DNA of 64,000 nucleotides from Eubacteriaceae bacterium (GTDB lineage: Bacteria; Bacillota; Clostridia; Eubacteriales; Anaerofustaceae), in assembly GCA_009782515.1 (NCBI GenBank), contig WRIY01000005.1:812-64811 (forward strand). Direction: 5' to 3'. Position numbers and translations under genes: made by a program. How positions within the stretch are numbered: position 1 is the first letter of the stretch; each line of letters opens with the position of its first letter. Below are positions 5,138 to 46,899 of the stretch, in pieces. The notes under the pieces are model-generated. The model worked only from the letters and a program-made list of their open reading frames with translations. It had not been told where the DNA came from and searched no databases.

Positions 5138-5245
5138 GCTCTGTTAAGTGTGAAAATCGCTCAGAAACAGATGTAACCAGCGAATATACGCTGTAAAGCT
5201 GGCTGCTGCACCTGAAGCAGCCAGTTTCATATCTCTTTCGTGCTG

Positions 5246-5992: not shown

Positions 5993-6365
5993 ACTAGCCT
6001 CCAGAGTATACTATGGACATTATATCAAAATGTCCACAAAAATCATAGACTTATATAGAACACGACCATTATATTTCACTCAGCCAGCAAACTCCATGTT
6101 CCAAAGCATATCCGTACGAAACCACAATTTTATGCAATAGGCGGCTTGAACTAACAGTATAGAAAGCTAAACAACAAAATATTAGCACACAATTATCTAA
6201 TGCTGCATATATTTAGTGTAGACATATATTTGCAATAGAAAGAAACGCAAGAAGGGCGAAATAAGCCTGAAAAATGCTGGCAATACCAGGAAGTCGCAGA
6301 GATAGAGGCGCTAACCCCCTTGCATCCCTATCTCTGCTTTTTTATTCAAACAACATTCAATTAAA

Positions 6366-8893: not shown

Positions 8894-9331
8894 AAATATC
8901 CTTTCGTTTTCGCATGTGCATATACGTCAAAGCAGGCCCAATTCCGGCAGATGAATTTATGCCCTGGCTTAATTATAGCTTATGCGCCAAATTTACTTAC
9001 AGCCTGAACGATCAGGAATTGAATTAGATAGCCGGCTAGCGCTAATTATCTTTCTGCAAATGCCGATCAGCCAGCGCGCTGCGATAGGCAAAATATCACT
9101 ATCGCTTTTGTAATGGCAATGCATGGCGCTTTTGCCAAGGCTGCTGCATTCGATCCTAAGTATTGTTAATATTTTCCGCCTTAAATTGTTAATTGGGAGA
9201 ATTAATCAACTTCCTCCAGAGAATAACAAGAAATTATTTCGTAAGAGGCTATTCTTGGCTTATCATGGAAGCATAAGCTGTGGCAAGCGCCCATCAGCAC
9301 ACTTGCCAATATTCACAGCAAAAAGAAGGCA

Positions 9332-10843: not shown

Positions 10844-10870
10844 GGGATAGTTTCGAAAGGAAAGGATACA

Positions 10871-11890: not shown

Positions 11891-11950
11891 GCGATTGTTG
11901 GGCGTAATGCTTTACAATAAATACATTAATGTTTTTAGAGAGGAAAAAAC

Positions 11951-12928
11951 ATGAAAAAAAATCTATTAGCTGTTTTGTTGGCTGGGCTGTTTCTATTTGC
12001 AGCAGCATGCACCCCATCCAGCAATAACAACAACACGACACAAGGCGGCGATGAAGGGGAAACCTATACAATCTACCTTGTAACAATGGATAGGATGGAC
12101 CAGCATTGGAACTCAGTCCAGGAGGGATGCCTAAGGGCTGCTGGCGAAATTGAAGCCGCAAGCGGCGACAAGATCGAATTTGTGTGGGATGCTCCGCAGG
12201 ATGGCAAGGAAGACGGGCCTCAGGTTGAGATCATCAACAATGCAGTTGCTGCTGAAGCCGATGTGATTCTGCTTGCAGCACACTCTGCTGATGGCCAGCT
12301 CGGCGCTATAACAGCCGGTGACGAGGCAGGGGTAAAATTCATTTATGTTGACTCGCCGGCAAGCTGGCAAGGTGCGCTTCAGACAATCAAAACTGACAAT
12401 GAAGCAGCAGGCACCCAGGCTGGCGAAGCAATGCTTGCAAAACTCACAGAGCTTGAAATTACTGAAGGCCAGATCGGCGTTGTAAGCCCTGATGCCGGAT
12501 CAGAGTCCGTTGTTGCCCGTGACGCAGGTTTCCGCAAAGCTTTCGAGGGGACAAGCTTCGAAATACTTGAGACTCAATACGGCGAAGGAAAGGCCGACTT
12601 GTCTCAGAACAAAGCGGAAGATTTTATCACCTCAGGGGTTGTTGGGCTGTTCGGAGCAAATGAAGGCAGCGCTGTAGGCGTAGCCAATGCAATCAAAGAG
12701 TCAGGCCAGAGTGTAGTCGGCGTTGGATTTGACACTAGCGCTACAGTGCTCACAGCCATCGAAGAAGACATACTTATCGGAACTATGGCACAGAATCCAA
12801 AAGAGATGGGCTACCTAGGCTTAAAGAGTGCCTATGAATACCTAAAGAATGGAACCGATCCTAATCCAAAGCTTCTGGACTCAGGAGCAACTATGGTGAC
12901 CAAAGCCAATTTGGCAGATTTCAAATAG
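11951..12928 (+). CDS. Sugar-binding lipoprotein (periplasmic-binding-protein type I, RbsB-like)
   Basis: The signal peptide has a lipobox (LFLFAAAC) followed by an N/T/G-rich linker. The PBP-like body includes KIEFVWDAPQDG and GVGFDTS. Confidence 0.85.
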   Translation: MKKNLLAVLLAGLFLFAAACTPSSNNNNTTQGGDEGETYTIYLVTMDRMDQHWNSVQEGCLRAAGEIEAASGDKIEFVWDAPQDGKEDGPQVEIINNAVAAEADVILLAAHSADGQLGAITAGDEAGVKFIYVDSPASWQGALQTIKTDNEAAGTQAGEAMLAKLTELEITEGQIGVVSPDAGSESVVARDAGFRKAFEGTSFEILETQYGEGKADLSQNKAEDFITSGVVGLFGANEGSAVGVANAIKESGQSVVGVGFDTSATVLTAIEEDILIGTMAQNPKEMGYLGLKSAYEYLKNGTDPNPKLLDSGATMVTKANLADFK

Positions 12929-13015
12929 CTAATACAGACAAAAGGCTATTAAAAGTAAGATGGGCTGATGCAAAAGGCCCTCTTTTCAAGCAATTTATGC
13001 GAAGTGCATAATCTA

Positions 13016-13047
13016 CAAGGATGAGAGCGAATTCTCATCCTTGTTTT
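13016..13047 (+). terminator. Rho-independent terminator after the ABC operon
   Basis: A perfect 11-bp stem (CAAGGATGAGA / TCTCATCCTTG) with a 6-nt loop, followed by TTTT. Confidence 0.7.
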
Positions 13048-13104
13048 GGCTGCTGCTTGTTTCGCCTGCACAGGCAGCATGCCAAATGCTCTAAGGAGAA
13101 AGCT

Positions 13105-13914
13105 ATGAACAAAGCGAATAGCCATAAAAAACTGCCTGCCCAGGCAATAGCAGCAATTTTTGTTTTTGCTGTTTTAATTGCATTGGCGTTTGCGTGGGCT
13201 GTTTTTGCAGATGTTATCATACTGCGCAAAACCGAAGGCTTAGGCGGGGCAGAGCGCGCTATTTCGATTTTATATGTTGGTGACAGCTTTATTTTTGTCG
13301 GCGGGCTCCCAAGGCAGCTGCAAGCGATTGCCAGGGCCAGCGGCATTGATACATCCTATAAAGATATTTCAAGGCACGCAAACCGCGGAGGCACCCTGAA
13401 AGAGAACATGGAAAATGCAATTAGGGAGTTGCAAAGCGGCAGATATAGCTACATTGTCATTCATGATCAGAATAGGAAGTCTCTTAGCGACATCGAAGGC
13501 CTGCTCGCAGATATACAAACACTGTGCAATGCTGCTGTTGAAAATGGGGCCATACCAGTGCTATATGATTTTGCAGGAATTGCAGCACACGGCAAGCCTG
13601 ATGAAGAGCGCCTAAGCATTTCTATTAATGCATACAGGCAAGCTGCAAATAGCAATAATGCCATTTTAGTCAGGGCTGCCGAGGCCTGGGTTTACGCATA
13701 TCAAGCGATGCCGGAAATTTCACTGTACACCAGGTTTGACCCTCGCGGCCTTCACCCAAGCAGGGCGGGAGGGTTTATGAGTGCATGCGTTTTTGCTGCT
13801 GAAGTGTTTGGCATACAAGTAACACAGATGCCAAAAGGCAGCATATATACAGGCAGTGACGCTCTCGGCCTTGCACAGGCTGCATGGGATTTCGCCAGCT
13901 TGCCTCGGGAGTGA
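13105..13914 (+). CDS. Membrane-anchored SGNH/GDSL-type hydrolase
   Basis: AAGGAG lies 6 nt before the ATG at 13105, and the track's 13021 start would lie inside the terminator hairpin. There is an N-terminal TM segment, block I ILYVGDSF, and a C-terminal DPRGLHPS (DxxH). Confidence 0.65.
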   Translation: MNKANSHKKLPAQAIAAIFVFAVLIALAFAWAVFADVIILRKTEGLGGAERAISILYVGDSFIFVGGLPRQLQAIARASGIDTSYKDISRHANRGGTLKENMENAIRELQSGRYSYIVIHDQNRKSLSDIEGLLADIQTLCNAAVENGAIPVLYDFAGIAAHGKPDEERLSISINAYRQAANSNNAILVRAAEAWVYAYQAMPEISLYTRFDPRGLHPSRAGGFMSACVFAAEVFGIQVTQMPKGSIYTGSDALGLAQAAWDFASLPRE

Positions 13915-13996
13915 AGCCCCATTGCCCAAAACAATAATTCCAAGGCCAGCAGCGCATTATCGTTTCAAAACGCGCAATTACAATAGCCATTGCGCG

Positions 13997-14018
13997 AAAA
14001 AACCCCTGCTAAGCGGGG
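13997..14018 (-). terminator. Probable terminator of the zinc-ribbon/ACS-like bicistron
   Basis: On the minus strand, a CCCGC(U)... hairpin (plus-strand CCCTGC-TAA-GCGGGG, 6 bp including one G-U pair) is followed by T6. Confidence 0.5.
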
Positions 14019-14092
14019 TTTAGGCGTGGCTTGTACTTTAAGTGCCAGTATAAAAAACGGGAGCAAAGGCACATATAATCCACGATTGGCGG

Positions 14093-16177
14093 CTATACGA
14101 GAATCGGCATTGTGGAAACCGGGTGCTTTGTGTCCTGAAGGTGCCTCTTTAGCTCCTCAAGCGTCACGCCAATGCTTTCATCGCATATCATTTCAGCGAA
14201 ATCCTCTATGCCGGTAAGCTCTTTGGCTCTTAAGTTTATTTCATCCCTGTATTCGTCTTTTAGCGATTTTGGCATCCAAACAACTCTTATAATGCCCCCT
14301 TCCGGCTGCAAATACTTTTTTGAGGCAATATAGCTTTTGCTGTGCCCCATTGCGCCAGGCGCCTGTTTCGCAGCGCTCGCCATAAACGCCAGCTCTGAAA
14401 AGCGCAGCCCCATGGGCGTAGCTCCGGAGTAGTCTTTGGGAACAGCAAGCACGCCGCTGGTAGACGGCTCAACTGCGCTAATGCACTCAAAGGCGCCAAT
14501 AGAAGGCATCGGATCCTGCATCAGCGAATAGATTGCCACATTCTTATAGCCTTTTTCAAGAGTGGCATCAACTTCAGCATACCTTCCCAGCAGGGCATCA
14601 GACGCCTCCCCTTTTGCTATGGCCATAATTGAAGGCGAGTTGCCTTTTGAGAGGGCGTGCTCTGAGTAAGCGCTATAGTAGTCAACAGCGCCGCATATGC
14701 CGGGCTTTTCGGGAGTAATAGCGCAAAAATGCGAACTCTGGTATTTGCGGCAAGCAGTGCAGGCATAAAAGAGCTTCACATTCTCGTCAGTAAGCTCACT
14801 AAGCCTTTCTGAACGTATTTTCGTTAATGGCGCTGCCACATTTGCCTCAATATTCTCAGACAGGCTCTGCTCAGTAATTATTGTTACCCGGCACTTAGAA
14901 ACGATATCTCCATATTCTTTTATCACCTGGCTGTATATCGACTGGCCAAGTGACTCATCTGTAAATCCTTTGTCATAAGCAGCCTTGCTAATGCGCAAGG
15001 TCGCTGAGCCAAAGTTCATGCTTAGGCTAACCCCTTCTATGCGATTAATCCATATGCTTAGCTGTTTTTCAGCGAATAGTTCAAACTCGTGCTCAATATT
15101 GGGGCCATGGCACTCTACCAGGATTGAAAGGCTTGAGCCATCTATAAGCCCATACCCCTTTGTTTCGACCTGGCTGTTGCCCGGCCAGTCGCTTCTGCTA
15201 AAAAAGAGCAAAAAGCCTGAATTTTCAGGCCATCCCAGCTGGGCATGCAGCTCGCCAGGCATAACTGCTTCATTCTGAAATGACGGGGAGTATGCATTTG
15301 CAGCAAAGCTTTCGCGCTCTACAGCCTCAATTCCACGAAGCCTGAATGAAATATCAGCCATCTTGCCTATGCCGTTTGAGCTCTCATAAGCTGTTGGCAC
15401 ATATGCTGAGCCGAGGCCTGCTTCAGCTATAGCCGGAAAGCCAAGCGCCATACAGCTCGCAGCGCAAGCAGCAGCAATCCCCGAAACCTCTCCGAGAATG
15501 TTTAAAAAAACAGGCAAAGAGCTTTTTGAAAAGCTGAAAAGGGAGCTTATGCTGCCGCCTGAAGATTCGCTGAAAATTTCAGCAAAGCGAAGGATTGCAG
15601 CAAATGCTTGTGAGCATGAGGCAAATGAAAAAACCCGATACTCTTTTCCGCCCTTTATTGAGCAGTTTTTTGCTTGGCCTGCAGCGCTGCCGGCCAAAAA
15701 AACAACAGCGCCGCTTTCCTGGTACTTCCGCACTAAGCCTTCAAACGCCTTATCGTCTTTAGTTTGGCCTATTATTAGCGCAATAGCAGGCACATCGCCT
15801 CTGGCAAGAGGGACTGCCAGATCCCTTATATCTGCGTCGGGCATATAGTTAAGGCTGAATGCCTCGGCATCATCCATATGCTCCAGTGCTTGAAGCGACT
15901 CAAGCCACAACAAAGCATACAAGCCCTCGTTGAAAGCAGATCCCAAGGCTCCTTCAGCTGGCATTATTTCCGGTTTTTCATACAAAGCTTTTTGTAGATC
16001 GCTTAGGTCTAAAACACTGATTCCTCTAAGGGCATGCATAAGCTGCAGAGTATATGGAAGGCGTGCTTCAAATCCATGCTTTTCGGCTGCATTGCCCAAA
16101 GCTTCCTGTGCTTGGCTGAGCAGCAAGGCTGACTCGCTTGCAGCCAAATCCTCTAATACACTCACGGCCCGCCTCAA
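14093..16177 (-). CDS. Acetyl-CoA synthase (AcsB/CdhC-family) paralogue lacking the Cys-Gly-Cys Ni ligands
   Basis: It aligns along its full length with the canonical AcsB at 33982-36120. It keeps CTACRKYQSSHFCAITPEKPGIC and GHSKSYIASKKYLQPEGGIIRVVWMPK, but the CGC position reads IGA (14492-14500). The start is non-ATG: the TTG at 16177, or the GTG at 16165 with GAGG upstream. Confidence 0.85.
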   Translation of the reverse strand: MRRAVSVLEDLAASESALLLSQAQEALGNAAEKHGFEARLPYTLQLMHALRGISVLDLSDLQKALYEKPEIMPAEGALGSAFNEGLYALLWLESLQALEHMDDAEAFSLNYMPDADIRDLAVPLARGDVPAIALIIGQTKDDKAFEGLVRKYQESGAVVFLAGSAAGQAKNCSIKGGKEYRVFSFASCSQAFAAILRFAEIFSESSGGSISSLFSFSKSSLPVFLNILGEVSGIAAACAASCMALGFPAIAEAGLGSAYVPTAYESSNGIGKMADISFRLRGIEAVERESFAANAYSPSFQNEAVMPGELHAQLGWPENSGFLLFFSRSDWPGNSQVETKGYGLIDGSSLSILVECHGPNIEHEFELFAEKQLSIWINRIEGVSLSMNFGSATLRISKAAYDKGFTDESLGQSIYSQVIKEYGDIVSKCRVTIITEQSLSENIEANVAAPLTKIRSERLSELTDENVKLFYACTACRKYQSSHFCAITPEKPGICGAVDYYSAYSEHALSKGNSPSIMAIAKGEASDALLGRYAEVDATLEKGYKNVAIYSLMQDPMPSIGAFECISAVEPSTSGVLAVPKDYSGATPMGLRFSELAFMASAAKQAPGAMGHSKSYIASKKYLQPEGGIIRVVWMPKSLKDEYRDEINLRAKELTGIEDFAEMICDESIGVTLEELKRHLQDTKHPVSTMPILV

Positions 16178-16740
16178 TCAAAGCTTTCGCCGCACTCAGG
16201 GCATTCTGTTGATCCAAGAGGGGCAAGTTTGTGGCAGTATGGGCACACATTTATCTGCACCGGCTCGCTCTCATACTCATCTTCGTCCTCAGCCCGGATG
16301 TCGCTTATGTTTGTATTGCAGTAAGTGCAAAACATAAGCTCAGAGTTTACCGGCTTTGAGCAAATGGGGCAAATTGCCTCTCTTGATGAAGTCCCGGAGT
16401 AAACATCAGCAACTTTTGTTCCGCAATCGCTGCAGTATTTCATATCAGTTGAGAGCTTGGCTCCGCACTCCCTGCATACGCCATGCACTTTTAGCGCAGA
16501 CATCTTGTCTTTTATAATTTCTATCTCAGTAGCAGCCTGCTTAGCCTTTAGAACATATGCAGCAAGCTCTGCATCAGCAACATCACCCTCAAGCGATTTG
16601 AGGTATTTTTCACCCAAATCTCTATACGCTCTTCTTAGCGCGTATTCTGCATTCTTCAGATCAGCGGTAGCTATCGAAAAATCTATTGTATTTTTGCCTT
16701 GCTGCGCTATCCTTCTTGCTAAGCCATCTAAAAAGGCCAT
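16174..16740 (-). CDS. Coiled-coil protein with three CxxC-x10-CxxC zinc ribbons
   Basis: GGAGG lies 5 nt before the ATG at 16740. The N-terminal ~90 aa form a charged helical region. The three ribbons are CRECGAKLSTDMKYCSDCG, CPICSKPVNSELMFCTYCN and CPYCHKLAPLGSTECPECG. The stop codon overlaps the start of the ACS-like gene. Confidence 0.75.
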   Translation of the reverse strand: MAFLDGLARRIAQQGKNTIDFSIATADLKNAEYALRRAYRDLGEKYLKSLEGDVADAELAAYVLKAKQAATEIEIIKDKMSALKVHGVCRECGAKLSTDMKYCSDCGTKVADVYSGTSSREAICPICSKPVNSELMFCTYCNTNISDIRAEDEDEYESEPVQINVCPYCHKLAPLGSTECPECGESFD

Positions 16741-16922
16741 TTCCACCTCCAGCATTGGCAGTCCGGTATTGCAAAGCCAATCTCTTTATATTATATCATT
16801 GCAGTTTCGCCAAGAAAACATTAGGCACGAGGCAAAAGCTGCGCTGCAATAGTGTTATAAGTAGCCAATTAAGCGTGCTTTATTATGAAAAATTGCTATA
16901 ATTATGATCAAAGAGGATTTAT

Positions 16923-19157
16923 ATGAACATAATTTCTGGCCGCATTGACCGGATTATATACGACAATAGAGAAAACAACTATGCGATCGTGCTTGTAACA
17001 ACGCAAAATGGGCCAATTACAGCTACAGGAACATACCCGCAGCCGAGGGTTGGCGATGAGGTGGAGTTTGTAGGCGATTACACGGAACACCCGAAGTATG
17101 GCCGCCAATTTGCCATCAAAAACTACTCAATTAAAAAAGCAAGCTCCGGCTCAGAGATCGAGGCGCTGCTCAAAAGCGGTTTGATAAAGGGTATGGGCAT
17201 CCAGCGCGGCTCAGATATATATGATCATTTCGGTGATGAATCGCTTGAAATTCTAAAAAACGATCCCGTGAGGCTTAGCGAAATCAGCGGCATTGGCAAG
17301 ATCACCGCCCAGCAGATGCATAATGACTTTATAAAAAGCGAAGATCGCTACCTGAATCTATGCTCCTTGATGCAATTCGGGCTCTCAGCGATAATGTCGC
17401 AGAAAATAATCGATGAATATGGAAGCCTGGCTTCAAGGGTAGTTAAGAATGATCCGTATATTCTGATCGATGATATCGATGGAATTGGCTTTAAAAGGGC
17501 AGATGCAATTGCTGAGAGGGCAAACATTGACAAGGCCGATGAAAGGCGCATACGCGCAGCGATATTCTACCTTATGGCACAGGACACGAATCTTGGCCAC
17601 TGCTACAGCGATCCCCAACAGCTGGTTATAAACGCCAAATCGCTATTGGGCATAGGCAATAAGCCCATAGATGATGTGATAGAGAAAATGGCCGGGTCTT
17701 TTGAGATTATCACTGACAGGCGCTATGGCAAGAATATGCTCTACCTTGAGAAGTACTACAGCTTTGAAAATCAGGCAGCTTTTTCGATTGCCGAAATTGC
17801 TTCCAACAAAAGCTCCATCAGCAAAGCTTTAGTCGAGGAAATACTGGATGACTACCAAAGGTTCCGCGGCTCTATAGTACTGGATGCAGACCAAAAAAAC
17901 GCGATCACAGGCGCATTGACCGGCAGCATGGCCTCTGTTATAACAGGCGGGCCAGGAACAGGCAAAACAACTATAATCAATGCGATTATCTATACGCTGA
18001 CAAGGCTCGGGCTTTCATATAAGCTGGCAGCGCCAACCGGAAGGGCTGCCAAGCGAATGTCGCTTGCCTGCGGCGAGGATGCTTCAACGATACACAGGCT
18101 GCTCGAAGTCGGCTTTGCCAATGGAATAATGGAGTACAAACGCAACAGCAGCAATCCTCTGGAATGCGATGTTGTAATAATCGATGAGATGAGCATGGTG
18201 GATCTGCCTTTGTTTTGGAGGCTTCTCAATGCTATGCTGCCTGACGAAATGAGGCTGATAATGGTTGGGGATAAAGACCAGCTGCCAAGCGTTTCCCCCG
18301 GAAATGTGCTAAACGACATTATCTCAACGGATGTTGTTACAGTATCGATGCTAAGCAATGTTTTCAGGCAGGAAGAGGGCACTTCCATCGCTCCCAATGC
18401 CCAGAGAATAAACAGAGGGCTGGCCCCTGAGGCAAAAGCCGGCGACAATAGCTTCGAAATTGTTGAATTGTCAGGCCAGCCTGAAATAGCAGACTATATA
18501 ATTAACTACATCAGCCAAAACGAATCGATCCTGCAGGCAATGATGCAGTCTGAAAAGGTGCAGATTATTTCCCCCCTTAAGAAGGGCGAAAGCGGAGTAA
18601 TTTCGCTTAATAAAAAGCTGCAGGAGCTTATAAACCCCGAAGATGTTGGCAAGGATGAGATAGAGCAATTCGAATACACTCTGCGCGAAGGCGACAAGAT
18701 CATGCAGACACGGAATAATTACGAAGCGAGTTGGGAGAATGTTATAACCCATGAGACAGGTGAAGGCGTATTTAACGGCGATATCGGAATTATTGAAAAT
18801 ATCAATGAATACGCAGGAGAAATAACGCTGCTCTTTGACAATGAGAAAAGAGTAAAATACACGCATGCAAAAGACATTGAAGGAATTACGCTTGCGTATG
18901 CAATCACAATCCATAAGAGCCAGGGCTCTGAATTTGATTATGTAATTATGCCACTGTTCCCGACAGCGCCTTCTTTTCTTACCAGGAACTTGCTGTATAC
19001 AGCTGTTACCAGAGCTAAGAAGAAAGTGGCTATCATCGGCGAAAAGAGAGTTATAGACCACATGGTGGGCAACAACCAAACGAGCCAAAGAAACAGCGCT
19101 TTGCGCGAGAGGATTATTGAGCTTATAAGAAGCCCGAATTTTATGAGCCGGCGATAA
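16923..19157 (+). CDS. recD2: RecD2-type SF1 DNA helicase
   Basis: Motifs are GGPGTGKTT, VVIIDEMSMVD, MVGDKDQLPSV and AYAITIHKSQGSEF, with an N-terminal OB/HhH region. AAGAGGA precedes the ATG. Confidence 0.9.
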   Translation: MNIISGRIDRIIYDNRENNYAIVLVTTQNGPITATGTYPQPRVGDEVEFVGDYTEHPKYGRQFAIKNYSIKKASSGSEIEALLKSGLIKGMGIQRGSDIYDHFGDESLEILKNDPVRLSEISGIGKITAQQMHNDFIKSEDRYLNLCSLMQFGLSAIMSQKIIDEYGSLASRVVKNDPYILIDDIDGIGFKRADAIAERANIDKADERRIRAAIFYLMAQDTNLGHCYSDPQQLVINAKSLLGIGNKPIDDVIEKMAGSFEIITDRRYGKNMLYLEKYYSFENQAAFSIAEIASNKSSISKALVEEILDDYQRFRGSIVLDADQKNAITGALTGSMASVITGGPGTGKTTIINAIIYTLTRLGLSYKLAAPTGRAAKRMSLACGEDASTIHRLLEVGFANGIMEYKRNSSNPLECDVVIIDEMSMVDLPLFWRLLNAMLPDEMRLIMVGDKDQLPSVSPGNVLNDIISTDVVTVSMLSNVFRQEEGTSIAPNAQRINRGLAPEAKAGDNSFEIVELSGQPEIADYIINYISQNESILQAMMQSEKVQIISPLKKGESGVISLNKKLQELINPEDVGKDEIEQFEYTLREGDKIMQTRNNYEASWENVITHETGEGVFNGDIGIIENINEYAGEITLLFDNEKRVKYTHAKDIEGITLAYAITIHKSQGSEFDYVIMPLFPTAPSFLTRNLLYTAVTRAKKKVAIIGEKRVIDHMVGNNQTSQRNSALRERIIELIRSPNFMSRR

Positions 19158-38878: not shown

Positions 38879-39449
38879 TGAAACCTCCTTGACATGCTTA
38901 TGTTGCTTGCTGGCGCGCTTCATTTTTGAAAATAAGTAGGAGTTATACTATATTTTATTGTCTGAATCGCACCAAAAGAAATATGTTCCGGATGGATTAT
39001 AGCAAAAAAGCAGCAATAAAACAATGATTAGTTACTGCCAGGCATTCAAATTTTCGAGAGAGATTTTTGGCTGTTTCTAGAATTTTATTGTATTAATGAC
39101 GCTGTCTACAATATTTTAGCGCGATATTTCGATAAATAACCATCTGTTGCCCTGAGTGCAGGATTCATGCGCGATCATGATATAGCAATCATTATAAGTT
39201 TTCGCAAAATTTGAAAAAAACGCAAATAAGAAATTCAGTATTGCATGTCTTTTTTCAATCGCTTATAGGGCTGCAAGCTGCCATCATTGCCTCTAAGCAG
39301 CACAGTTTGCTGCTTGGCTGTGGGATCGCTGCAATGCAAAATTATTGGAAGGAATGGGGTTTTATGAGCAATCCGGCATAAAGCCAGGGCAAAAGTGCAA
39401 ATGCTGTAAAAAAGCGTGTGCCGAAAATGAAAGAACACGGCATTTCGAC

Positions 39450-39473
39450 AAAAAAATGCCCTTGAAAGCATTT
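39450..39473 (-). terminator. Possible terminator closing the LuxR/zinc-ribbon cluster
   Basis: On the minus strand, an AAATGC-(8 nt)-GCATTT hairpin is followed by T7, directly after the stop at 39481. Confidence 0.45.
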
Positions 39474-39480
39474 TTCATTG

Positions 39481-40161
39481 CTAATAGCTATTTCTGCTGC
39501 CCGCCATGTACATTCTGACCAATTGCTCTACATGCTCGTAGTTGCCATTGTTTGCGTAAATCAATGCAGTTTGGCCTGAAGGCTTGTGCAATGCTATTTC
39601 GAGCTTTTCAGGGCGATACTCAGCGCTAATGTAGTCACCCCATGGATTTATTGGCATACCATGCATAAGCGTGCCGGCATTCTTTGCCATTTTTATGCCA
39701 TGCGAAACAACGCTGGGGTTAGCCTTGCCAGACGTTGCTGCAACTGATGCCATTCCCAGCATAGCGAGCCTTTTCGCTACATCAGGCGGATAGCTGCAGG
39801 CATAGCCCTCCCGGGCTATGACCCACAAAGTGCGCTCAACACCCCATTTCTTTTGCTTGCCCTTATAGGCCCATGTGATTATATAGACTGCAAGCGCCAC
39901 AATGCCGCCCATAATAACTGGCACGAACCAAAAGCCTTCAGCAAGTGCAACCAGCAAGCCGATTCCAGTCATCGGCAGCCATGCCAGCAGTATTATTGCG
40001 ATAATTGCTTTCCGGCTATAGAGGCTGCTTGCCGTTTCATAGCTGTATTCGCCTGGAGCCGGCATAGCCGCCGATCTGGCAAGGCCGCACTCAGGGCAAA
40101 AGTTTGCCCCCTCGCGCATGTAGGCCCCGCAATGCTCACAGTGCGCGGCAGATTCCATCAT
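39481..40161 (-). CDS. Zinc-ribbon / two-TM protein with an uncharacterised C-terminal domain
   Basis: CEHCGAYMREGANFCPECG lies at the N-terminus. Two hydrophobic helices follow (AIIAIILLAWLPMTGIGLLVAL, VPVIMGGIVALAVYIITWAY), then about 125 aa that I do not recognise. Confidence 0.7.
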   Translation of the reverse strand: MMESAAHCEHCGAYMREGANFCPECGLARSAAMPAPGEYSYETASSLYSRKAIIAIILLAWLPMTGIGLLVALAEGFWFVPVIMGGIVALAVYIITWAYKGKQKKWGVERTLWVIAREGYACSYPPDVAKRLAMLGMASVAATSGKANPSVVSHGIKMAKNAGTLMHGMPINPWGDYISAEYRPEKLEIALHKPSGQTALIYANNGNYEHVEQLVRMYMAGSRNSY

Positions 40162-40837
40162 ATGCTTCCCAAGCCTCTCTTTTTATTTCGCTTTTGTTTA
40201 TTTCAGCCTGCTTTGCGCAGCAATCTTTAAAGCCTGCGATAACGCTCTCGCTGCCTGCCTCTGTACAAGCATCAGGCTCGGCTGTTGCATGCTGCCACTT
40301 TCTTGTGCGCGACATTTGCAGTGCAGCAATGATTTTTTGGCCTGTTTGATCTGAGAGCACATTGCCTGCCCCGACCATTTTTCCGTTTGCGTTTTTTTCC
40401 AGGAACACTTTGAAAATATACTCCGGCTGCCCGTCAAAGGCAATATGCACTGTATCGCTGCTTTCGACTGTGATATGGCCCAAGCTTTTCACATTCTCCG
40501 GCCTGAAGCCCTGCAGCTTGGACAGGCTCTCAGGAAATGCCCCCTCTTTGACCCGATATACGCTAAAATCATAGCCCCCCTTGGCAGATGCGGATACATT
40601 AAATCTCAAATGCGATTTGTAAACATTCGTTCGGTCGCCTGACTCCCAGATTTCCAGGTACACGTCCCACTGGCCGTCCAGCGAGTCAACATCCAAGTCG
40701 ACGGTTTCTTCCCGGATTATCGGTGGGTTTTTATCGTAACAGCCGCAAAAAGCTATGGCGATGGCAACAAGCAAAGCCGCTGCTGCAATGCAAAAGCTGG
40801 CTTCACCGTCTTTTGGCAGGACAGGTTTATTGCGCAT
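40136..40837 (-). CDS. Hypothetical lipoprotein
   Basis: The signal peptide has Cys residues in a lipobox-like context (LLVAIAIAFCGC), followed by a beta-rich soluble domain. It overlaps the downstream gene by 26 nt. Confidence 0.6.
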   Translation of the reverse strand: MRNKPVLPKDGEASFCIAAAALLVAIAIAFCGCYDKNPPIIREETVDLDVDSLDGQWDVYLEIWESGDRTNVYKSHLRFNVSASAKGGYDFSVYRVKEGAFPESLSKLQGFRPENVKSLGHITVESSDTVHIAFDGQPEYIFKVFLEKNANGKMVGAGNVLSDQTGQKIIAALQMSRTRKWQHATAEPDACTEAGSESVIAGFKDCCAKQAEINKSEIKREAWEAYDGICRAL

Positions 40838-40901
40838 ATTGAGCTCTCTTCGTATCGTAGTATCGTTTAGTGGTCAATGCCGGATCATTGCAGCTATGGC
40901 A

Positions 40902-43900
40902 TCAATCCCCTTCCGGAATGACAGGGCTGTAGTAATCCGGCTGCGGGTTGTCGTAAAATGGCCCTGGCCCCCTGGTCACTATCACAATATATGACCCTGC
41001 AGGAGCGCTAATGCCGAGCTGCGGAGCGAACGAAGGGCCGTCTGCAACAGAGATCCTGTAAGTATAAACAGTGTTTTGGTAGCTTTGAACCCGGGTAATT
41101 ACGACATTGCCACTGCCGTCGCTCTCAACTTCCGTGCTCGCAGACTCACTTACCAGGCCGTTCAGATAGCTGATAACCTCATCACGCTTGCCGCCAAGAA
41201 GCACAGCAGCTTTCCAGGCGTATTGGCCTTGCGTTCCTTCATGCACGCTCAGCCCTGTCAGTGTGCCTTTGTACTCGCTTAAGGCTGTTCCCAGAAAATC
41301 GGAGGGCCATTTATAAACCGTCGGGGCTGGAGGCTCAGGGGCAGTCAGCCTTATATTTATAGCCTTTGTTGTTATTGGCAAAAAGTCGATATCGCTAAGC
41401 TCTACAACCAGCGTCAGATAATTAAACGGGCCGACGGCGTAGTTTTGCGTTACAGGCAGCGTAAAGGAATATTCATGCGCCACGTTCGGATCTATGCTTT
41501 GGTTTAGGCTTTCAAGCACGGGGTAATTGATTTCAGGTATATAAGCTTTCAGCTGGTACACCACAGGCAGCACAGACATGTTATGCACGTTAAAGGCGAG
41601 CGCATCGCCCCATGTGCCTGCCAGCTCCTCGGGCCCTACTTGCATTGGCAGATTCAATAACTCCGTATAAAACAGCTCAGTGCGCCATTTGTCAAAGCCG
41701 GTTTGCCAATAATATGAGTTAGACAGATCGAATTCTGCAGCGATTGTTTCGTCCCGCCCGTCTTCATACACTTGCATTATCCTGAGCTTTCCGTCTTCTA
41801 CAGGGCCGGTATAAATAACTGCAATTTTAAGCACTCCGCTGGGCGGCTTTGCAATTACTGACCCGTCAGCGTTTGCTACGCATTCGCCGCTTGTCCATAC
41901 AAGAAGGTTTGCTGATGATTTGGCAACATTTTTTGTTGTGATTTTATATTGCTGGCTGTCATGAAAGAATGATACAGCAGGCGCATCATTAAAAGCTGAA
42001 ATCTCATTGTTAGGGATTTTTTTGAAATCAGTGCCGTCTATATAGAATGATACAAAATCTGTGTAAAAGGCCAAATAGTTTTCGCCATAGCCGCATGCTC
42101 TGGCGACCTGCGAATACGTCGAGCCGGATACATCAGAAAAAACGCTGTATATAACCCTCCCTAAATGCATGCCCAGCACCTTGTCTATGAAGTAGGGCAC
42201 TATAGCCGCCATATCTTCAAAGGCTGCTACATGGCTAAGCGTATTGGCAACAACCTGCAGCCCATCGGAGCTTTCGAGGTCATGGCGCAGAAAATCCGTA
42301 GATACGGATTTTTTGTATTGATCTGCGCTTCTGCCAAGCGCGTATGTTTCAGCTGCATACCTGCACACGCTTTTAAGCCAAACAGGGGACTCGCCTCCGC
42401 GCATTAAGTACTTTAGCGGCGTAAAAAAGCCATATACGCTATATTCCTTTGCAAAGGTGTCGATGCCGTACATTCTGCCCAGCAAAGTTTCAAAAACCTG
42501 GTATGCCAGCTGGTAGCGCATCTCCTCAGATCCTGCTTTGCTGTCATAGTCGGAAAGCTTTACGCGTATTTGGCATATTGCCTGGCCGAATTCGCTGGCC
42601 TTAGTTGACAGAGTGTCATCATACATCATAGCCCAATAGCCTGTATCGTCATTGGTGAGCTCAGTAGGCCTGTAGCTCTCGTAATAGCTGTCCAGCTCCC
42701 TTCCCAGCCTTTCAAGCAGTGCAGCGCCCTCGGGCGGCATTATGTAATTCTCTTTTATTAAATTGAGGGTAGCCTCCTCTTCCTCCTTTGTCAGCGTTCC
42801 TGTATAAATGTCCTTTGGAGGCTTTGGATTCATGAATGGATCGATTCCGTTGCTAATCGTTACGATCGACTCGCCGGTTCTTATCGACTGGACCGCGCGC
42901 CTCACTAGAGCCGCCCTATCCGGATCGTACTTTTCCAGCATTTGCATGCTGTCAAAAAGAATGTGGAAATGCCCGTTGGGCGAAGTATACTTCGCGCCCA
43001 ATACGAATCTGCCTATATCGGTGCGCTTTACCCAATCCCAGGCATTCTTTGCAGCTATAGAATATACGATCGTGCCGGCAGTAAGCTTATACAGAATCGG
43101 CACCAGTGCAATAGGGCACAAGTGGTCGGTGTAGGCTGTAATTGTGCTGTTGGCTTCGTTCACTGTGAACGGGATGCCTACAAAGCCTGAGGTTTCATCC
43201 CAGCGTGCGGCAATGAGCTCATTTTTAGGATCGCTTACCGCGTTCGCGTCATACGGAATCGTAATTCCAATGGTATCGCCCAGCTCACCGCTTTCCCCGA
43301 CAGACAGGTCATAGACTTTGCCGTAATCCAGCCCCTCAAGGCCGGCCATGCTTTGTATTTCGCTAAGCGAAACAACCATGTCCTGGCTTGCAAAGCCCTC
43401 TGGGAGGTGAAGCGTAGCCTCTCCCAGGCTAATAGCTTGCTCTTGGCCTGATGGGTAAATAGTCTGGCTTGAAAGAAATGCTCTGTCCAGGCTGCCTATG
43501 TCAACATCAACTGTTGCGATGCCATCATCAAAAGACAAAAAATCCTCAGCAACATCGCCATCGTCGCTATAGACTGAACTCGCGCTGCTAAAGCCGTCGC
43601 TCACGCCTTCCCTGCTTGCACTCCGGTTTCTGATTCCTATTGTGCCGGTAATCAGCAATAAAACTGCAAGCGCAGACGAAATGATGCGGTACGGCAGTAT
43701 CCAACTGCCATTTTTCTTTCGGGGCAGGGGCTCTTTTGGCGCTTGTTGGCGGCGGCGCTGCTGTTTTCGCTGTTCATTCCGGGCTGGGCCTTGATCATGC
43801 GCCGGATCAAAGCCTCCTGTATCCTGGCTTTCAGCTTGCAGCGTCAGCAAAGGGGAGCCGGGCTTGGCGCCCTGATCAAGATCGCCCTCAAGGCCTGTTG

Positions 43901-44015
43901 GCAGCTTCAGCACTGTCTCGCTGCCATCCGGCCCTTCAGCTTCAGCGCCGCATTCAATACAAAACTTAGCCCTTTCCATCAGGGCTTTTCCACAGTGTGC
44001 ACAAAACCTTTCCAT
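40902..44015 (-). CDS. 1037-aa protein: N-terminal zinc ribbon, basic/disordered linker, one TM segment, ~870-aa extracytoplasmic region of unknown fold
   Basis: The ribbon is CAHCGKALMERAKFCIECG. The linker contains ...RNEQRKQQRRRQQAPKEPLPRKKNG, and the TM segment is IISSALAVLLLITGTIGI. I recognise no catalytic motif. Confidence 0.7.
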   Translation of the reverse strand: MERFCAHCGKALMERAKFCIECGAEAEGPDGSETVLKLPTGLEGDLDQGAKPGSPLLTLQAESQDTGGFDPAHDQGPARNEQRKQQRRRQQAPKEPLPRKKNGSWILPYRIISSALAVLLLITGTIGIRNRSASREGVSDGFSSASSVYSDDGDVAEDFLSFDDGIATVDVDIGSLDRAFLSSQTIYPSGQEQAISLGEATLHLPEGFASQDMVVSLSEIQSMAGLEGLDYGKVYDLSVGESGELGDTIGITIPYDANAVSDPKNELIAARWDETSGFVGIPFTVNEANSTITAYTDHLCPIALVPILYKLTAGTIVYSIAAKNAWDWVKRTDIGRFVLGAKYTSPNGHFHILFDSMQMLEKYDPDRAALVRRAVQSIRTGESIVTISNGIDPFMNPKPPKDIYTGTLTKEEEEATLNLIKENYIMPPEGAALLERLGRELDSYYESYRPTELTNDDTGYWAMMYDDTLSTKASEFGQAICQIRVKLSDYDSKAGSEEMRYQLAYQVFETLLGRMYGIDTFAKEYSVYGFFTPLKYLMRGGESPVWLKSVCRYAAETYALGRSADQYKKSVSTDFLRHDLESSDGLQVVANTLSHVAAFEDMAAIVPYFIDKVLGMHLGRVIYSVFSDVSGSTYSQVARACGYGENYLAFYTDFVSFYIDGTDFKKIPNNEISAFNDAPAVSFFHDSQQYKITTKNVAKSSANLLVWTSGECVANADGSVIAKPPSGVLKIAVIYTGPVEDGKLRIMQVYEDGRDETIAAEFDLSNSYYWQTGFDKWRTELFYTELLNLPMQVGPEELAGTWGDALAFNVHNMSVLPVVYQLKAYIPEINYPVLESLNQSIDPNVAHEYSFTLPVTQNYAVGPFNYLTLVVELSDIDFLPITTKAINIRLTAPEPPAPTVYKWPSDFLGTALSEYKGTLTGLSVHEGTQGQYAWKAAVLLGGKRDEVISYLNGLVSESASTEVESDGSGNVVITRVQSYQNTVYTYRISVADGPSFAPQLGISAPAGSYIVIVTRGPGPFYDNPQPDYYSPVIPEGD

Positions 44016-44097
44016 TTCGCTTAAACCTTCCTTATTTGCCGAAATGCCATTTTCTTTTTTATATCAATTTAGCTGCCTGGCAATGCCGCTTTATCCC

Positions 44098-44820
44098 TCA
44101 TGGGCGCACGAGCGCAATATTTTGTTTTTCGCCTGATATCCAGGTTATTTCGCCCACGCCGTATTGGCTGCCATTTATGGCGTAAAAGCTCATGATATTT
44201 ATTTTCACGCCTTTTGTATCGATGTCGCCAGCGATAAGCGCGCTTCCGGAAAATCTACCGATGTAGGCCTCTTTATCTCTAAAAGAGACATCGTAGTCTT
44301 CCCCTGTAGCCATATTCGAGCCAAAAAAGCCTTTAGTGTGGTAAGTAAATTTCGCGTTGGCGGCATCGCCGCTGATTTCAACGTTGAAAAACTCCAGTTC
44401 CTCTTGCTCGCCCTCAAACATCTGAACCGTTTCTGTGTAAGCTTTCCAATAGCCGGCAACTTGGCTAAAATCAGAAATTACGGCTCTCCCCTTTGGCAGG
44501 CCATCCCATTTCACGCTTTCCGTAAACCAGAAAAAGTCGCCAATAGACGCCTTCTCGCCTTCAGCATAGCCAAAGAAGCTCGAATAGCTGTTTTGCGTTT
44601 GGGCGTCAGGCAGCGTTTCAGCGCCGTTTATCTCTGACGGCAAAAGATTTGTACCGGCCGAATCCTCGATCTCTTGGCCCAGAGTGCCGGGGGCTTCTAT
44701 TCGAACGCTCTCGCTTGCCGCGCTGGAATCCGGGCGGTACGCGTATATGTTTAACCCGATGCCACCTGCCACCGCCAGCGCCAAGAAGGCATCTATAATT
44801 GCCGGCTTTAGTTTATTCAT
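44098..44820 (-). CDS. Hypothetical N-terminally membrane-anchored protein
   Basis: The N-terminal TM segment is AIIDAFLALAVAGGIGLNIYAY, followed by an S/A/E-rich linker and a beta-rich domain. Confidence 0.6.
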   Translation of the reverse strand: MNKLKPAIIDAFLALAVAGGIGLNIYAYRPDSSAASESVRIEAPGTLGQEIEDSAGTNLLPSEINGAETLPDAQTQNSYSSFFGYAEGEKASIGDFFWFTESVKWDGLPKGRAVISDFSQVAGYWKAYTETVQMFEGEQEELEFFNVEISGDAANAKFTYHTKGFFGSNMATGEDYDVSFRDKEAYIGRFSGSALIAGDIDTKGVKINIMSFYAINGSQYGVGEITWISGEKQNIALVRP

Positions 44821-44976
44821 AAATAAGGCTTCTCCCCTACTAAGATTTAAGCGCCGCCTTTTGCTTTTTCGCCCGCAGCTTCGCTTCTATTTTATAACAG
44901 CCGGATATAAGTGTGCCTCACATATACATGTGATATTAGCTGCATCTGCTATAAAAGCGGTTTTGCTTCCGGCCGG

Positions 44977-46437
44977 CTACTTTTGGCCAGCCGCCTGCTG
45001 CTGGCTTAGCACCAGATAGGAAAGCTCTGCTTTGCTGCTCACCCCTGCCTTGGCATATATGCTTTTCACATGGGTTCGAATGGTGTTTTCGCTCACTGAC
45101 AACTCGCTGGCAATCGCCTTATACGGCTTTCCCTGAATCAGCAAAAGCATAACTTTGTTTTCGGAAACCGTTAGCTGCTCAGCAATGCCAAGCGCTGTTG
45201 CCTGCTGCTTTTGCTTCGGCCCAGCTTTGCTGCCAGGCGCTGTATAGGCCTGGCTTTCCAGGAGCTTGGACAGCTGGCTGCTCAGCGCAGGCAGCATTAA
45301 TTGCATTGCGCATACAACGCTAAGCGCAAGCAGGGTGCTGTTATGAGTGCCGGAGCTTGATTTGGCGAATTCGCTTCCGGCAATCCCGCCTATGAGGACC
45401 CCCATCACGTTAGCGCCAAGGCCTGCCCCCATGACAAAAGCAGGGTTGCTGCCAAACTCAAGCATTTGGCCTAAAATGCTCCACCAGAAAAGATCATGAA
45501 TGCCGCATGCGCCAAGCATCAGAGTATTGATGACAAGGTAATCCTGCCAGCCGCGCCCAAGCAGGAGAAACAGTATGAATGAAAAGCCTGTCATGGCGAT
45601 TGATATATACAGCGAATAAGCGCGCTTAGAGCTGCCGGGGCGGCGGCGCATGATAAGCATGGCTCCTATATACGGCACAACCCAATACCAGCTTGCCAGA
45701 ATCTTAAGGTGGGCAAATTCAGGGTTCACAATTTGGTACATAAGCCCTGAGCTTATCGTGGCTGCAAATATGAAAAGGCATATAAACGCGAGCGGGCCTG
45801 CTAAACTTGCTCTCCCCTCGCCTTGCGGCCCGGCAGCCTCTAGATCAATTGGCGCCTGGCTGGCTTTTGGCAGCTTAAGCGCAAATGCGAACGCTGCAAA
45901 GAGGGCAAAAATTGAGGATCCTAACCCTGCTTGCGCAGATAAATGCATCGCTGCCAAATTTATCAGCACCATAAGCGCATTTGAAAAAATAAGGCAGGAA
46001 GCAATTGCACCGGCCCGATCCTCGTTTGAAAAGCAATTCTTGAAATAAAACCCCCATGCTGCTACGCAGGCCCCGACGAGAAACGAGGCTGAAAGCAATG
46101 CAGCTTTCCACAAAAACGATGGCGCCGAAAAAAAAACGCAAGAGGCAGCAATGCAAAACGCTATTGAAGCCAATATAAGGCTTTTGGCTTTTTTTATGCT
46201 CGTAACATACAGGCTGCATGTAGCAAGCCCTGCAAAGTGGGAAGCCATGGCGCCGAATGCATATGGCTGAGCTGAAACTTCGTAGCAGCTGGTTATGGCA
46301 TGCAAAACCTGGCCATCAAAAGAGAACGATAGCAGCCATGAAAAAAACAATGAAAACACGATAACCGGCAAGCTGCCTTCTGACAGCGTTTTTTTTGCGT
46401 GGCTTTTCGCTTTGGCCTCCATTGGAATTCGCTCCAT
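44977..46437 (-). CDS. Polytopic-membrane LuxR-family transcriptional regulator
   Basis: About 10 or more hydrophobic segments are followed by a C-terminal LuxR HTH (LTVSENKVMLLLIQGKPYKAIASELSVSENTIRTHVKSIYAKAGVSSKAEL). Confidence 0.8.
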   Translation of the reverse strand: MERIPMEAKAKSHAKKTLSEGSLPVIVFSLFFSWLLSFSFDGQVLHAITSCYEVSAQPYAFGAMASHFAGLATCSLYVTSIKKAKSLILASIAFCIAASCVFFSAPSFLWKAALLSASFLVGACVAAWGFYFKNCFSNEDRAGAIASCLIFSNALMVLINLAAMHLSAQAGLGSSIFALFAAFAFALKLPKASQAPIDLEAAGPQGEGRASLAGPLAFICLFIFAATISSGLMYQIVNPEFAHLKILASWYWVVPYIGAMLIMRRRPGSSKRAYSLYISIAMTGFSFILFLLLGRGWQDYLVINTLMLGACGIHDLFWWSILGQMLEFGSNPAFVMGAGLGANVMGVLIGGIAGSEFAKSSSGTHNSTLLALSVVCAMQLMLPALSSQLSKLLESQAYTAPGSKAGPKQKQQATALGIAEQLTVSENKVMLLLIQGKPYKAIASELSVSENTIRTHVKSIYAKAGVSSKAELSYLVLSQQQAAGQK

Positions 46438-46899
46438 TCCTGCCCGGGTTTAGCTGGCGCTCTCGGCCCCGGTTATTTTTTGCTGCTTAAAAGTGCCAAG
46501 CAGCACAGCTTTTAAAAAAATCAGCAACAAGAGTTCTATTATTAGCCGAAAATACTGGCAAGGATATTTTAGCAAAGAGAAAAACTGGTTTTCAAGCAAA
46601 TCCTTGCTATCTCATTTAGCCATAATTATACAGCTTGCGATATATTTGCGTCTGCCTGCTGCTTTTGTACAAATAAAAATAGAGGAAAAAGCAGTTTGGC
46701 TTTTCGAGGGGATCATTGCCGGGATCAAGTATTTTATTATACGAATGCCCCTGATGCCCGAAGTATTCGCGCCAAATTTGCGATACTTCAAAATATCTTG
46801 GCAAATGTCGAAAAACAGCGTGCTATCGTGCATTTATAGCCTTCGTTGAACTTTAGGCTGTACTGTGGTATCATGGACGAAATATTAAGAGGCAAAAAA

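Follow-up and report, generated by a model that had tools for sequence, protein, structure and literature searches.

The window analysed here, a 64,000-nucleotide stretch of DNA from an Eubacteriaceae bacterium (assembly GCA_009782515.1, contig WRIY01000005.1, positions 812 to 64,811 of the forward strand), contains on its minus strand a cluster of five genes, called P1 to P5 in the order of transcription (Table 1). The cluster is probably one variant of a widespread, horizontally mobile and modular envelope cassette, placed under the control of a LuxR-type one-component regulator with 12 transmembrane (TM) segments. The cassette itself is a real envelope module, built from gene families in changing combinations; these families are found again in many anaerobic gut Clostridia and pass from one genome to another. 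The class of its regulator has already been published; the cargo is new.

P1 contained a GerE/LuxR helix-turn-helix (HTH) domain (PF00196) at residues 421–472, with an E-value of 6e-12 and 45.5 bits compared to a Pfam cut-off of 23.5. Hydropathy delineated 12 hydrophobic segments between residues 21 and 388, kept in seven homologues, and the N-terminus was positively charged, so that a topology with both ends inside the cell and a cytoplasmic HTH is predicted. No other domain was recognised in P1 by Pfam or NCBIfam, neither a receiver nor a cytoplasmic ligand-binding domain. The NCBIfam matches spanned the HTH alone, and the P1 profile matched in the PDB only the DNA-binding domains of LiaR/VraR, VpsT, GerE and NarL. 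A first-pass annotation made from the letters of the window had described P1 as a one-component membrane regulator with about 10 or more TM segments and a C-terminal LuxR HTH, which the Pfam match, the 12 segments and the overall architecture bear out. It had also placed no member of the cluster in a known family, and in this respect P1 must be excepted, as it fits the published LuxR activators with 10–12 TM segments (PMC9734109). Dong et al. (2022) described regulators with such an N-terminal domain in Eggerthella lenta, and showed by deletion and complementation that DadR, HcdR and CadR activate adjacent catechol dehydroxylase genes upon exposure to the substrate (PMC9734109). In E. lenta DSM 2243 they found 83 transmembrane LuxR-type regulators, the TM domains of which share less than 20% identity among paralogues (PMC9734109), compared to a single 12-TM LuxR in the genome of the window. 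P1 resembles DadR, HcdR and CadR, a match judged by architecture, in its approximately 12 N-terminal TM segments directly joined to a C-terminal LuxR/GerE HTH, and like them it is encoded beside genes expected to be under its control. The difference lies in the cargo. The known targets are cytoplasmic or periplasmic molybdopterin or flavin reductases, with small-molecule substrates as inducers, whereas P1 and its Bacillota relatives have zinc-ribbon membrane proteins, lipoproteins and large ectoproteins as neighbours.

Full-length homologues of P1 showed 29–55% identity. At least 499 loci of the family were confirmed by a degenerate-pattern scan of one genome per species, a number which is a lower bound and is skewed to close relatives. 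They were mostly located in metagenome-assembled genomes (MAGs) of Bacillota (Oscillospiraceae, Desulfitobacterium, Syntrophomonas and Christensenellales), and the remaining loci included Eggerthellaceae, Synergistaceae and Chloroflexota MAGs. One close homologue, 55% identical to P1, came from an Eggerthellaceae MAG. According to the records, higher-termite gut samples were the source of several of the closest P1 matches and of the closest homologues of P3, P4 and P5.

The genes neighbouring the regulator were surveyed in 78 P1-family loci, in which open reading frames (ORFs) were called with a longest-ORF heuristic and hidden Markov models were built from the recurring neighbours. Co-directional runs downstream of the regulator comprised 255 of the 1251 ORFs, or about 20%. 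An N-terminal zinc ribbon followed by a TM segment (ZnR-TM) was present in 33 of these 255 ORFs and in 10 of the 996 located elsewhere (odds ratio 14.7, Fisher p 8e-16), and a ZnR-TM gene adjoined the regulator in 26 of the 78 loci. The association of ribbons, ectodomains and membrane regulator is thus statistically supported. The whole genome of the window possessed nine ZnR-TM ORFs out of 2903, two of them in the cluster. The downstream runs also attracted 35 of the 41 ORFs of a family called Y172 (two TM segments, approximately 170–215 aa, motif FGILLGxKIIxFxQxG..., no Pfam model), 19 of the 23 of a family called ZnTMC (ribbon, TM hairpin and C-terminal ribbon) and 11 of the 14 beta-sandwich ORFs. 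Y172 was the commonest partner of the regulator, located directly 3' of the 12-TM LuxR in 35 of the 78 loci (for example L046:11545-12102). The membrane domain of P1, the domain of P2 and the beta-sandwich of P3 existed as a single copy each in the 2.67-Mb genome, all three within the cluster, which argues for more than a chance arrangement. The proposal, made at first pass, of a dedicated envelope or sensing system rather than random genes stands as far as a functional link is concerned, given the recurrence of the families elsewhere and an approximately 15-fold enrichment of ZnR-TM ORFs downstream of P1-family regulators. What has to be abandoned is a fixed five-gene machine, the cluster being one variant, devoid of Y172, of a modular and horizontally exchanged cargo.

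Other genomes showed the same families in several arrangements. In locus L130 (GCA_009783265.1, a termite-gut MAG), a LuxR 50% identical to P1 was followed by Y172, a 1251-aa protein with the motif HELFH, a lipoprotein, a P4 homologue, a small ribbon protein, a P5 homologue (63%) and two more exported proteins, an order matching the P1 ... P3 - P4 - P5 of the window. The cassettes of G027 and G036:C5 started with a LuxR and Y172 and contained further on a P2-like gene, then a ribbon-anchored beta-sandwich protein of the ZnR-TM type. The succession in L133 was Y172, a 940-aa HELAH protein, a zinc ribbon fused to a P2 domain, a zinc-ribbon gene, a P5 homologue and a P3-N-like protein. L051 had a 1205-aa ribbon-anchored HELFH protein after the LuxR, and in L035 the closest homologue of P3 came after Y172. 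The cargo varied even among the closest P1 homologues, and in several cassettes the large protein was a lipoprotein without a cytoplasmic part. Pfam recognised nothing above threshold in the accessory proteins of the related cassettes. Conservation, by which the first-pass annotation had proposed to judge the neighbourhood, was found at the level of gene families, which co-occurred across distant genomes, but no close relative in the family or order had the whole set. P3 and P4 had no real homologue among the 40–101 genomes searched within the family and order, and P5 gave ribbon-level matches only.

The largest protein, P3, starts with the ribbon C5-x2-C8-x10-C19-x2-C22, followed by the basic linker RKQQRRRQQAPKEPLPRKKNG and by a TM segment at residues 106–124. 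The ribbon scored 22.5 bits with Zn_Ribbon_1 (PF13240), under the cut-off of 25, with a perfect CxxC-x10-CxxC pattern. Ribbon and basic linker were conserved among the P3 relatives, the pattern being kept in two of three; the third, P0026, had no N-terminal region. The cytoplasmic ribbon, basic linker and single TM segment read at first pass were confirmed by sequence and hydropathy. A hydrophobic stretch at residues 299–317, considered as a second TM segment, is probably not one, the aligned segment in P0025 being charged and amphipathic.

A word-index search with the ectodomain of P3 returned P3 itself only. An exhaustive phmmer search of 1.84 billion representatives found just three full-length relatives (approximately 25% identity), and about 45 further proteins matched at residues ~170–360 only. 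Ten of these 45 belong to one family, in which the motifs HELFH and WWxEAxAEY are invariant, and six of the ten showed sub-threshold matches to Peptidase_M9 at the motif region. The profiles of the P3 and HELFH families aligned over 517 columns, corresponding to P3 residues ~178–800, with an hhalign probability of 99.9% (E 6e-32). The alignment with this gluzincin-type family (HExxH plus Glu) covered the beta-sandwich, a hydrophobic linker helix, an 'xPxGNFxIxY' strand and both active-site helices, and a joint MAFFT alignment independently placed the same motif columns. The HELFH column read RLMFK, AGVFQ and RSLFK in the three P3 relatives, with N, D and N at the third-ligand position (the P3 residues are given in Table 1). 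The four members of the P3 family had all lost the two His, the catalytic Glu and the Glu of the third ligand, the substitutions being non-conservative and different from one member to the next; in contrast to gluzincins, none retained a zinc ligand or the catalytic Glu, and none can be classed as an active zincin. No alternative cluster of conserved His, Asp or Cys was visible among the invariant columns of the family. Because all zincin-defining residues were lost in the four members, P3 is, judged by its residues, a zincin-derived pseudo-peptidase. The first-pass annotation had seen no known motif in the ~870-aa ectodomain, which holds for the lost catalytic residues and not for the ancestry, recognisable as zincin-like with hhalign.

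In the AlphaFold2 (AF2) model of P3, the degenerate motifs were located in helices 497–516 and 544–559, the strands of residues 178–306 had block means of the predicted local distance difference test (pLDDT) of mostly 60–86, and beta-sandwich domains appeared at ~680–890. The first beta-sandwich was common to the large exported proteins behind P1-family regulators (hhalign 97–98%) and to the HELFH proteins. The HELFH...WWxEAxAEY family showed sub-threshold similarity to Peptidase_M9 (collagenase) and to DUF6055, and has no characterised member and no Pfam model. Profile searches of the PDB with the P3 and HELFH families gave no matches.

The HExxH motif was kept in the large proteins of the equivalent cassettes L051, L130 and L133. 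With the core of the HELFH family, the 1251-aa protein of L130 aligned at 86.5% hhalign probability, and the 940-aa HELAH protein of L133 at 30% only. The L051 protein (L051:11750-15367), encoded directly behind a P1 homologue, had an intact HELFH...FLEATAEYAG core, preceded by an N-terminal zinc ribbon, a TM segment and the beta-sandwich and followed by a repeat region. The domain at its C-terminus also occurred in non-peptidase proteins called 'BigLip', and this indicates domain shuffling among cassette ectoproteins. Two other candidates were rejected as kin. The 872-aa 'HEFAH' protein of L033 was related in its N-terminal ribbon and TM region only, and not in a HELFH core, and hhalign did not support a relationship of the BigLip helical domain with P3 or the HELFH core.

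P2 was described at first pass as N-anchored, in agreement with the one N-terminal anchor seen by hydropathy. Its C-terminal ~165 aa had 21 homologues besides the query (40–65% identity), many of them fused to a zinc ribbon and TM segment in place of the plain anchor, and the G027 partner was 31% identical (E 4e-23). The AF2 model showed an up-and-down beta-barrel of about 10 antiparallel strands with an N-terminal helix (block-mean pLDDT 88–98 for residues ~110–240), and the top Foldseek matches were mostly lipocalins, fatty-acid-binding proteins, nitrobindin and designed barrels (E 1e-3 or weaker, TM-score 0.35–0.63). A lipocalin-like up-and-down barrel is predicted on this model. In G027, G036:C5 and L033, a P2-type gene immediately preceded the gene for a large ribbon-anchored protein, and in L133 it stood two genes from such a gene.

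P4 possessed a signal peptide with a hydrophobic core at 15–33 and a lipobox AFCG-C at about residue 33, which fits PROSITE PS51257; its aligned homologue in L130 had a classical IILSG-C at the same position. P4 is thus a putative lipoprotein, as first annotated. This L130 lipoprotein, 169 aa long and at the same relative position, was 46% identical to P4 (E 7e-45), and no homologue was found among 101 other genomes of the order. The CxxC-x10-CxxC ribbon of P5 scored 26.8 bits with Zn_Ribbon_1 (PF13240) compared to the cut-off of 25. The TM hairpin at 53–95 places the C-terminal 130 aa in the cytoplasm, and the Pfam match and hydropathy agree with the ribbon, two TM segments and cytoplasmic C-domain proposed earlier. 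The C-domain carried the motifs KGKQKKWG, GYPPDVAKR, AEYRPxK and NPDNYxxVEQLVR. At least 40 homologous clusters, 46–69% identical, made up the P5 family, which was conserved over its whole length and was located in zinc-ribbon-rich cassettes. Ribbon and hairpin of P5 were akin to ZnTMC (hhalign 97%), and its C-domain was distinct; the P5 C-domain and P4 showed no kinship with the Y172, ZnTMC, BigLip or P2 families (hhalign below 4%). The P2 and P5 families gave no match in PDB profile searches. On the whole, Pfam and NCBIfam recognised only the P1 HTH and the P3 and P5 zinc ribbons in the five proteins.

Evidence of mobility came from several sides. The cassettes of G027 and G036:C5 shared 83–88% DNA identity over 4.7 kb in genomes from different bacterial families, and the Dxr of each of these families was only ~50% identical to that of the window genome. 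The relatives were too distant for dxr synteny (~50% protein identity). The GC content of the cluster was 50.0% compared to 46.3% for the genome (standard deviation 2.0%), within the top 3% of the 7-kb windows, a bias which fits a foreign origin; its tetranucleotide distance ranked in the top 14%. No integrase, transposase, nuclease or terminal repeats were found bounding the cluster, and its neighbours are the housekeeping genes cooS and dxr.

Elsewhere, a LuxR-headed cassette of ~9.6 kb was located inside the type I restriction gene hsdR (L023, G027:C7:44000-62000, ~3930-13580). It encoded the LuxR, Y172, a 687-aa lipoprotein, a P2-like protein, a 756-aa ribbon-anchored protein, a 441-aa ZnTMC and a 120-aa ribbon protein. 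This G027 cassette split hsdR exactly at helicase motif I (...GYIWHTTG / (M)GTGSGKT), with ACTGG at both junctions and no transposase inside. In L025 (G036:C5:80000-98000), a P3-like ribbon-anchored gene at 13534-17430 was broken by an ORF for a transposase of the insertion sequence (IS) family IS3 at 14629-15462. In L026 (G007:C8:134000-152000), a P1 homologue (40% identity) preceded a 540-aa leucine-rich-repeat surface protein, ending in a similar beta-sandwich and LPATG, and a class B-like sortase; the locus lay on the margin of a conjugative element, beside genes for ParA, ParB, a relaxase and a Big_2 surface protein.

The ORF listing confirmed the five co-directional ORFs with the coordinates of the first-pass annotation, the gaps of 156, 82 and 64 nt and the 26-nt overlap of P4 and P5. 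Purine-rich sites resembling Shine-Dalgarno sequences preceded P2, P3 and P4, and no terminator-like hairpin was found on the coding strand in the internal gaps. Because of this spacing, of the ribosome-binding sites and of the lack of internal terminators, we infer that P2–P5 are probably carried on one transcript with P1, or else are expressed from a P1-dependent promoter in the 156-nt gap. The candidate promoter upstream of P1, proposed on consensus match alone, agreed with the sigma-70 consensus at 10 of 12 positions, with a TG preceding the -10. Two overlapping AT-rich hairpins followed P5 between 39473 and 39439, formed by AAAAATGC/GCATTTTT and GGCATTT/AAATGCC. A hairpin with T-run had been annotated there; the hairpins were present, but with just 2–3 G-C pairs and an interrupted T-tract they correspond to a weak intrinsic terminator at best, weaker than first implied.

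Other features of the non-coding segments were as follows. An inverted pair of 26 nt linked the terminator region after P5 (39430-39455) to the P2–P3 gap (44032-44057), with 85% complementarity and GGCATTTCG(A/G)CAAA in both arms. A 78-aa ORF on the minus strand (39235-39471) started inside the terminator hairpins, within the 557-nt AT-rich region between P5 and cooS, and is probably spurious. The motif GGCAYT-N4-6-RGCAGC was present three times in one orientation on the minus strand, in the P1 5' region (46486-46501), inside P1 (45178-45193) and in the P2–P3 gap (44076-44091), its first copy belonging to the palindrome TGCTGCTT-N9-AAGCAGCA. Approximately 0.03 occurrences would be expected per 18 kb for this pattern, which was derived post hoc, and it was not conserved at the related loci; the three copies may mark a local operator or have arisen by chance.

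Table 1. Location of the five genes, of their domains and of the associated sequence signals in the window.
Feature	Position in window	Strand	Size or parts	Basis or remark
P1	44977-46437	minus	486 aa	ORF listing
P2	44098-44820	minus	240 aa	ORF listing
P3	40902-44015	minus	1037 aa	ORF listing
P4	40136-40837	minus	233 aa	ORF listing
P5	39481-40161	minus	226 aa	ORF listing
P2 parts			signal-anchor TM 7-25; disordered linker ~60 aa; unannotated C-domain ~76-240	
P3 domain order			zinc ribbon 4-25; basic linker; TM 106-124; beta-sandwich 173-306; degenerate zincin-like core ~336-680; beta-rich domains ~681-890; low-confidence tail	
P5 parts			zinc ribbon 8-25; TM hairpin 53-95; conserved cytoplasmic C-domain	
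P3 beta-sandwich	43098..43499	minus		'...TIPYD...W...V...TDHLC'
P3 pseudo-zincin core	41976..43010	minus		profile homology to HELFH family
HELFH column in P3	42489-42503	minus	Y505-Q-V-F-E509	
Third-ligand Glu of WWxEAxAEY in P3	42372-42374	minus	K548	
Candidate sigma-70-type promoter	46566..46595	minus	TTGAAA, 18 nt, TG-TAAAAT	~130 nt 5' of P1 ATG
Second extended -10 (TGTATAAT)	near 46625-46634	minus		consensus resemblance
Weak terminator-like hairpins 3' of P5	39439..39473	minus		bordering 557-nt cooS upstream region

We propose the following organisation for the cassette of the window. If P1 acts like DadR, HcdR and CadR, its 12-helix membrane domain would perceive a cue and its HTH would activate one or more promoters of the cluster. 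P3 would keep its ribbon and basic linker inside the cell, be anchored by one TM segment and expose outside the beta-sandwich and a zincin-like domain unable to bind a catalytic zinc. It would therefore bind, rather than cleave, a peptide or protein ligand or partner. The tethered lipocalin-like barrel P2 and the lipoprotein P4 would be extracytoplasmic accessory partners of P3, and P5 would add, on the cytoplasmic face of the membrane, another zinc ribbon and its conserved domain. As the net role, we favour as most likely the inducible surface display of a ligand-capture or adhesion assembly. This cassette may be derived from cassettes in which the large protein remains an active surface metallopeptidase. 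Some observations do not fit easily with this proposal. Y172, the commonest partner, was absent from the cluster and from the whole genome, and the copy in the window may thus be a reduced or rearranged variant. The zincin assignment of P3 rests on profile homology, the AF2 model having a mean pLDDT of 57 and Foldseek having returned from the PDB generic tandem Ig-like matches only. The peptidase link of the HELFH family itself consists of the motif and of the sub-threshold Peptidase_M9 matches in 6 of its 10 members. The likeness of P2 to lipocalins was weak (E 1e-3 or weaker). There was no family-wide operator, k-mer enrichment in 85 upstream regions having yielded -10-like words only.

Another interpretation is that the five proteins constitute a signalling complex and not a regulator with its cargo. 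P3 and P5 would be co-sensors of P1, their cytoplasmic ribbons docking on or releasing the LuxR HTH or the 12-TM domain, as in RsgI/SigI, ToxS/ToxR and TcpH/TcpP, and the external ligand, a protein or peptide, would be bound by the P3 ectodomain together with P2 and P4. In favour are the enrichment of ZnR membrane proteins near P1-family regulators (26 of the 78 loci, odds ratio 14.7), the conserved ribbon and basic linker in the P3 relatives and the whole-length conservation of P5, ribbon and cytoplasmic domain included, the last being expected of an interaction module; pseudo-enzymes such as the degenerate LytM factors EnvC and NlpD are often regulators. We nevertheless consider it unlikely, as two thirds of the P1-family loci have no downstream ZnR-TM gene and their regulator does not need one, the commonest partner Y172 has no ribbon, and the large protein of several cassettes is a lipoprotein without cytoplasmic part. 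In a bolder form, which we hold to be quite unlikely, signals would cross the membrane in a new way and be delivered in the cytoplasm by the N-terminal ribbons of P3 and P5: the pseudo-peptidase ectodomain, assisted by the tethered lipocalin-like barrel and the lipoprotein, would capture an external protein or peptide and, through the ribbon, directly control the 12-TM LuxR. If true, a LuxR counterpart of the anti-sigma/sigma pairs would be spread over anaerobic Bacillota by horizontally mobile cassettes.

The mobility of the cassettes could alternatively indicate a fitness or defence module of mobile elements (surface exclusion, masking of phage receptors or abortive infection) switched by the membrane LuxR. 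The horizontal transfer, the insertion of one cassette in a type I restriction gene, the P1 homologue bordering conjugation genes (ParA, ParB, relaxase), a sortase and an LPXTG protein, the IS elements close by and the atypical GC of the cluster all go in this direction. It appears improbable, however, as PADLOC-DB and PHROGs matched only the HTH of P1 (in PADLOC, through the HTH parts of CARF models) and none of P2–P5, and as the cluster in the window has no integrase, transposase, nuclease or terminal repeats and has the housekeeping genes cooS and dxr as neighbours. It is very improbable that P3 is still an enzyme, a peptidase or hydrolase acting through other residues in an inducible module for protein degradation or nutrient acquisition. 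Such a role would agree with the HExxH...E retained in the equivalent cassettes L051, L130 and L133 and with the substrate-inducible enzymes known as targets of 12-TM LuxR regulators, but it conflicts with the loss of both His, catalytic Glu and third-ligand Glu in all four members of the subfamily and with the lack of another conserved His/Asp/Cys cluster in the invariant columns. We give least credence to a mere adjacency of hypothetical genes without common function. The absence of P3, P4 or the whole set from close relatives of the family or order and the different cargo of the closest P1 homologues would be compatible with it. The same families were nevertheless found together and in the same order in distant genomes, three of them are single-copy in the genome and all located here, the enrichment downstream of P1-family regulators is strong, and the genes are tightly spaced with one overlap.

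The binding role proposed for P3 in a regulated surface cassette has parallels in other systems. Dead peptidase homologues are known as binding or regulatory factors, such as the degenerate LytM factors EnvC and NlpD of E. coli, and some are controlled from the cytoplasm via a membrane partner. P3 resembles EnvC and NlpD, as a functional analogy only, in having kept a peptidase fold, lost the metal ligands and being located in the envelope; its fold is that of a zincin and not the LytM/M23 fold. The cluster also recalls ToxR/ToxS, TcpP/TcpH, CadC, BcrR and RsgI/SigI, where a membrane-tethered domain binds DNA or controls a sigma factor and bitopic partners possess extracytoplasmic sensing domains. 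These systems have one to four TM segments and an OmpR/winged-helix or XRE HTH, or act on sigma factors, and neither a 12-TM domain nor partners bearing a zinc ribbon at the N-terminus are known in any of them. Barrel-shaped protease inhibitors are encoded beside their proteases, as are the staphostatins and the serralysin inhibitor Inh/AprI. P2 is similar by its predicted barrel and by the location of P2-type genes beside large peptidase-like ectoproteins. It has no sequence similarity to calycins or lipocalins, with weak Foldseek scores, and unlike in the protease-inhibitor pairs the neighbour of the P2-type gene in G027 and G036 showed no peptidase homology beyond the beta-sandwich.

Hitherto, the 12-TM LuxR regulators were associated with the metabolism of small molecules in Coriobacteriia. 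A Pfam-dark cargo is headed by this type of regulator in dozens of anaerobic Bacillota at the least, and probably in hundreds, with termite guts, digesters and sediments as their sources. The cargo is made up of ectoproteins anchored by a zinc ribbon (zincins either active or dead), of tethered barrels, of lipoproteins and of small membrane proteins. At least six unannotated families share their genomic context, namely those of the P2 barrel, the P3 pseudo-zincin, P4, P5, Y172 and ZnTMC. None has a Pfam or NCBIfam model, and the literature search found no paper describing them. The regulator and its promoter region form a concrete pair, testable in the search for an inducer. Should the ribbons signal to the regulator, a new signalling principle would be at work; otherwise, the families described here still provide a useful annotation of a common mobile surface module.

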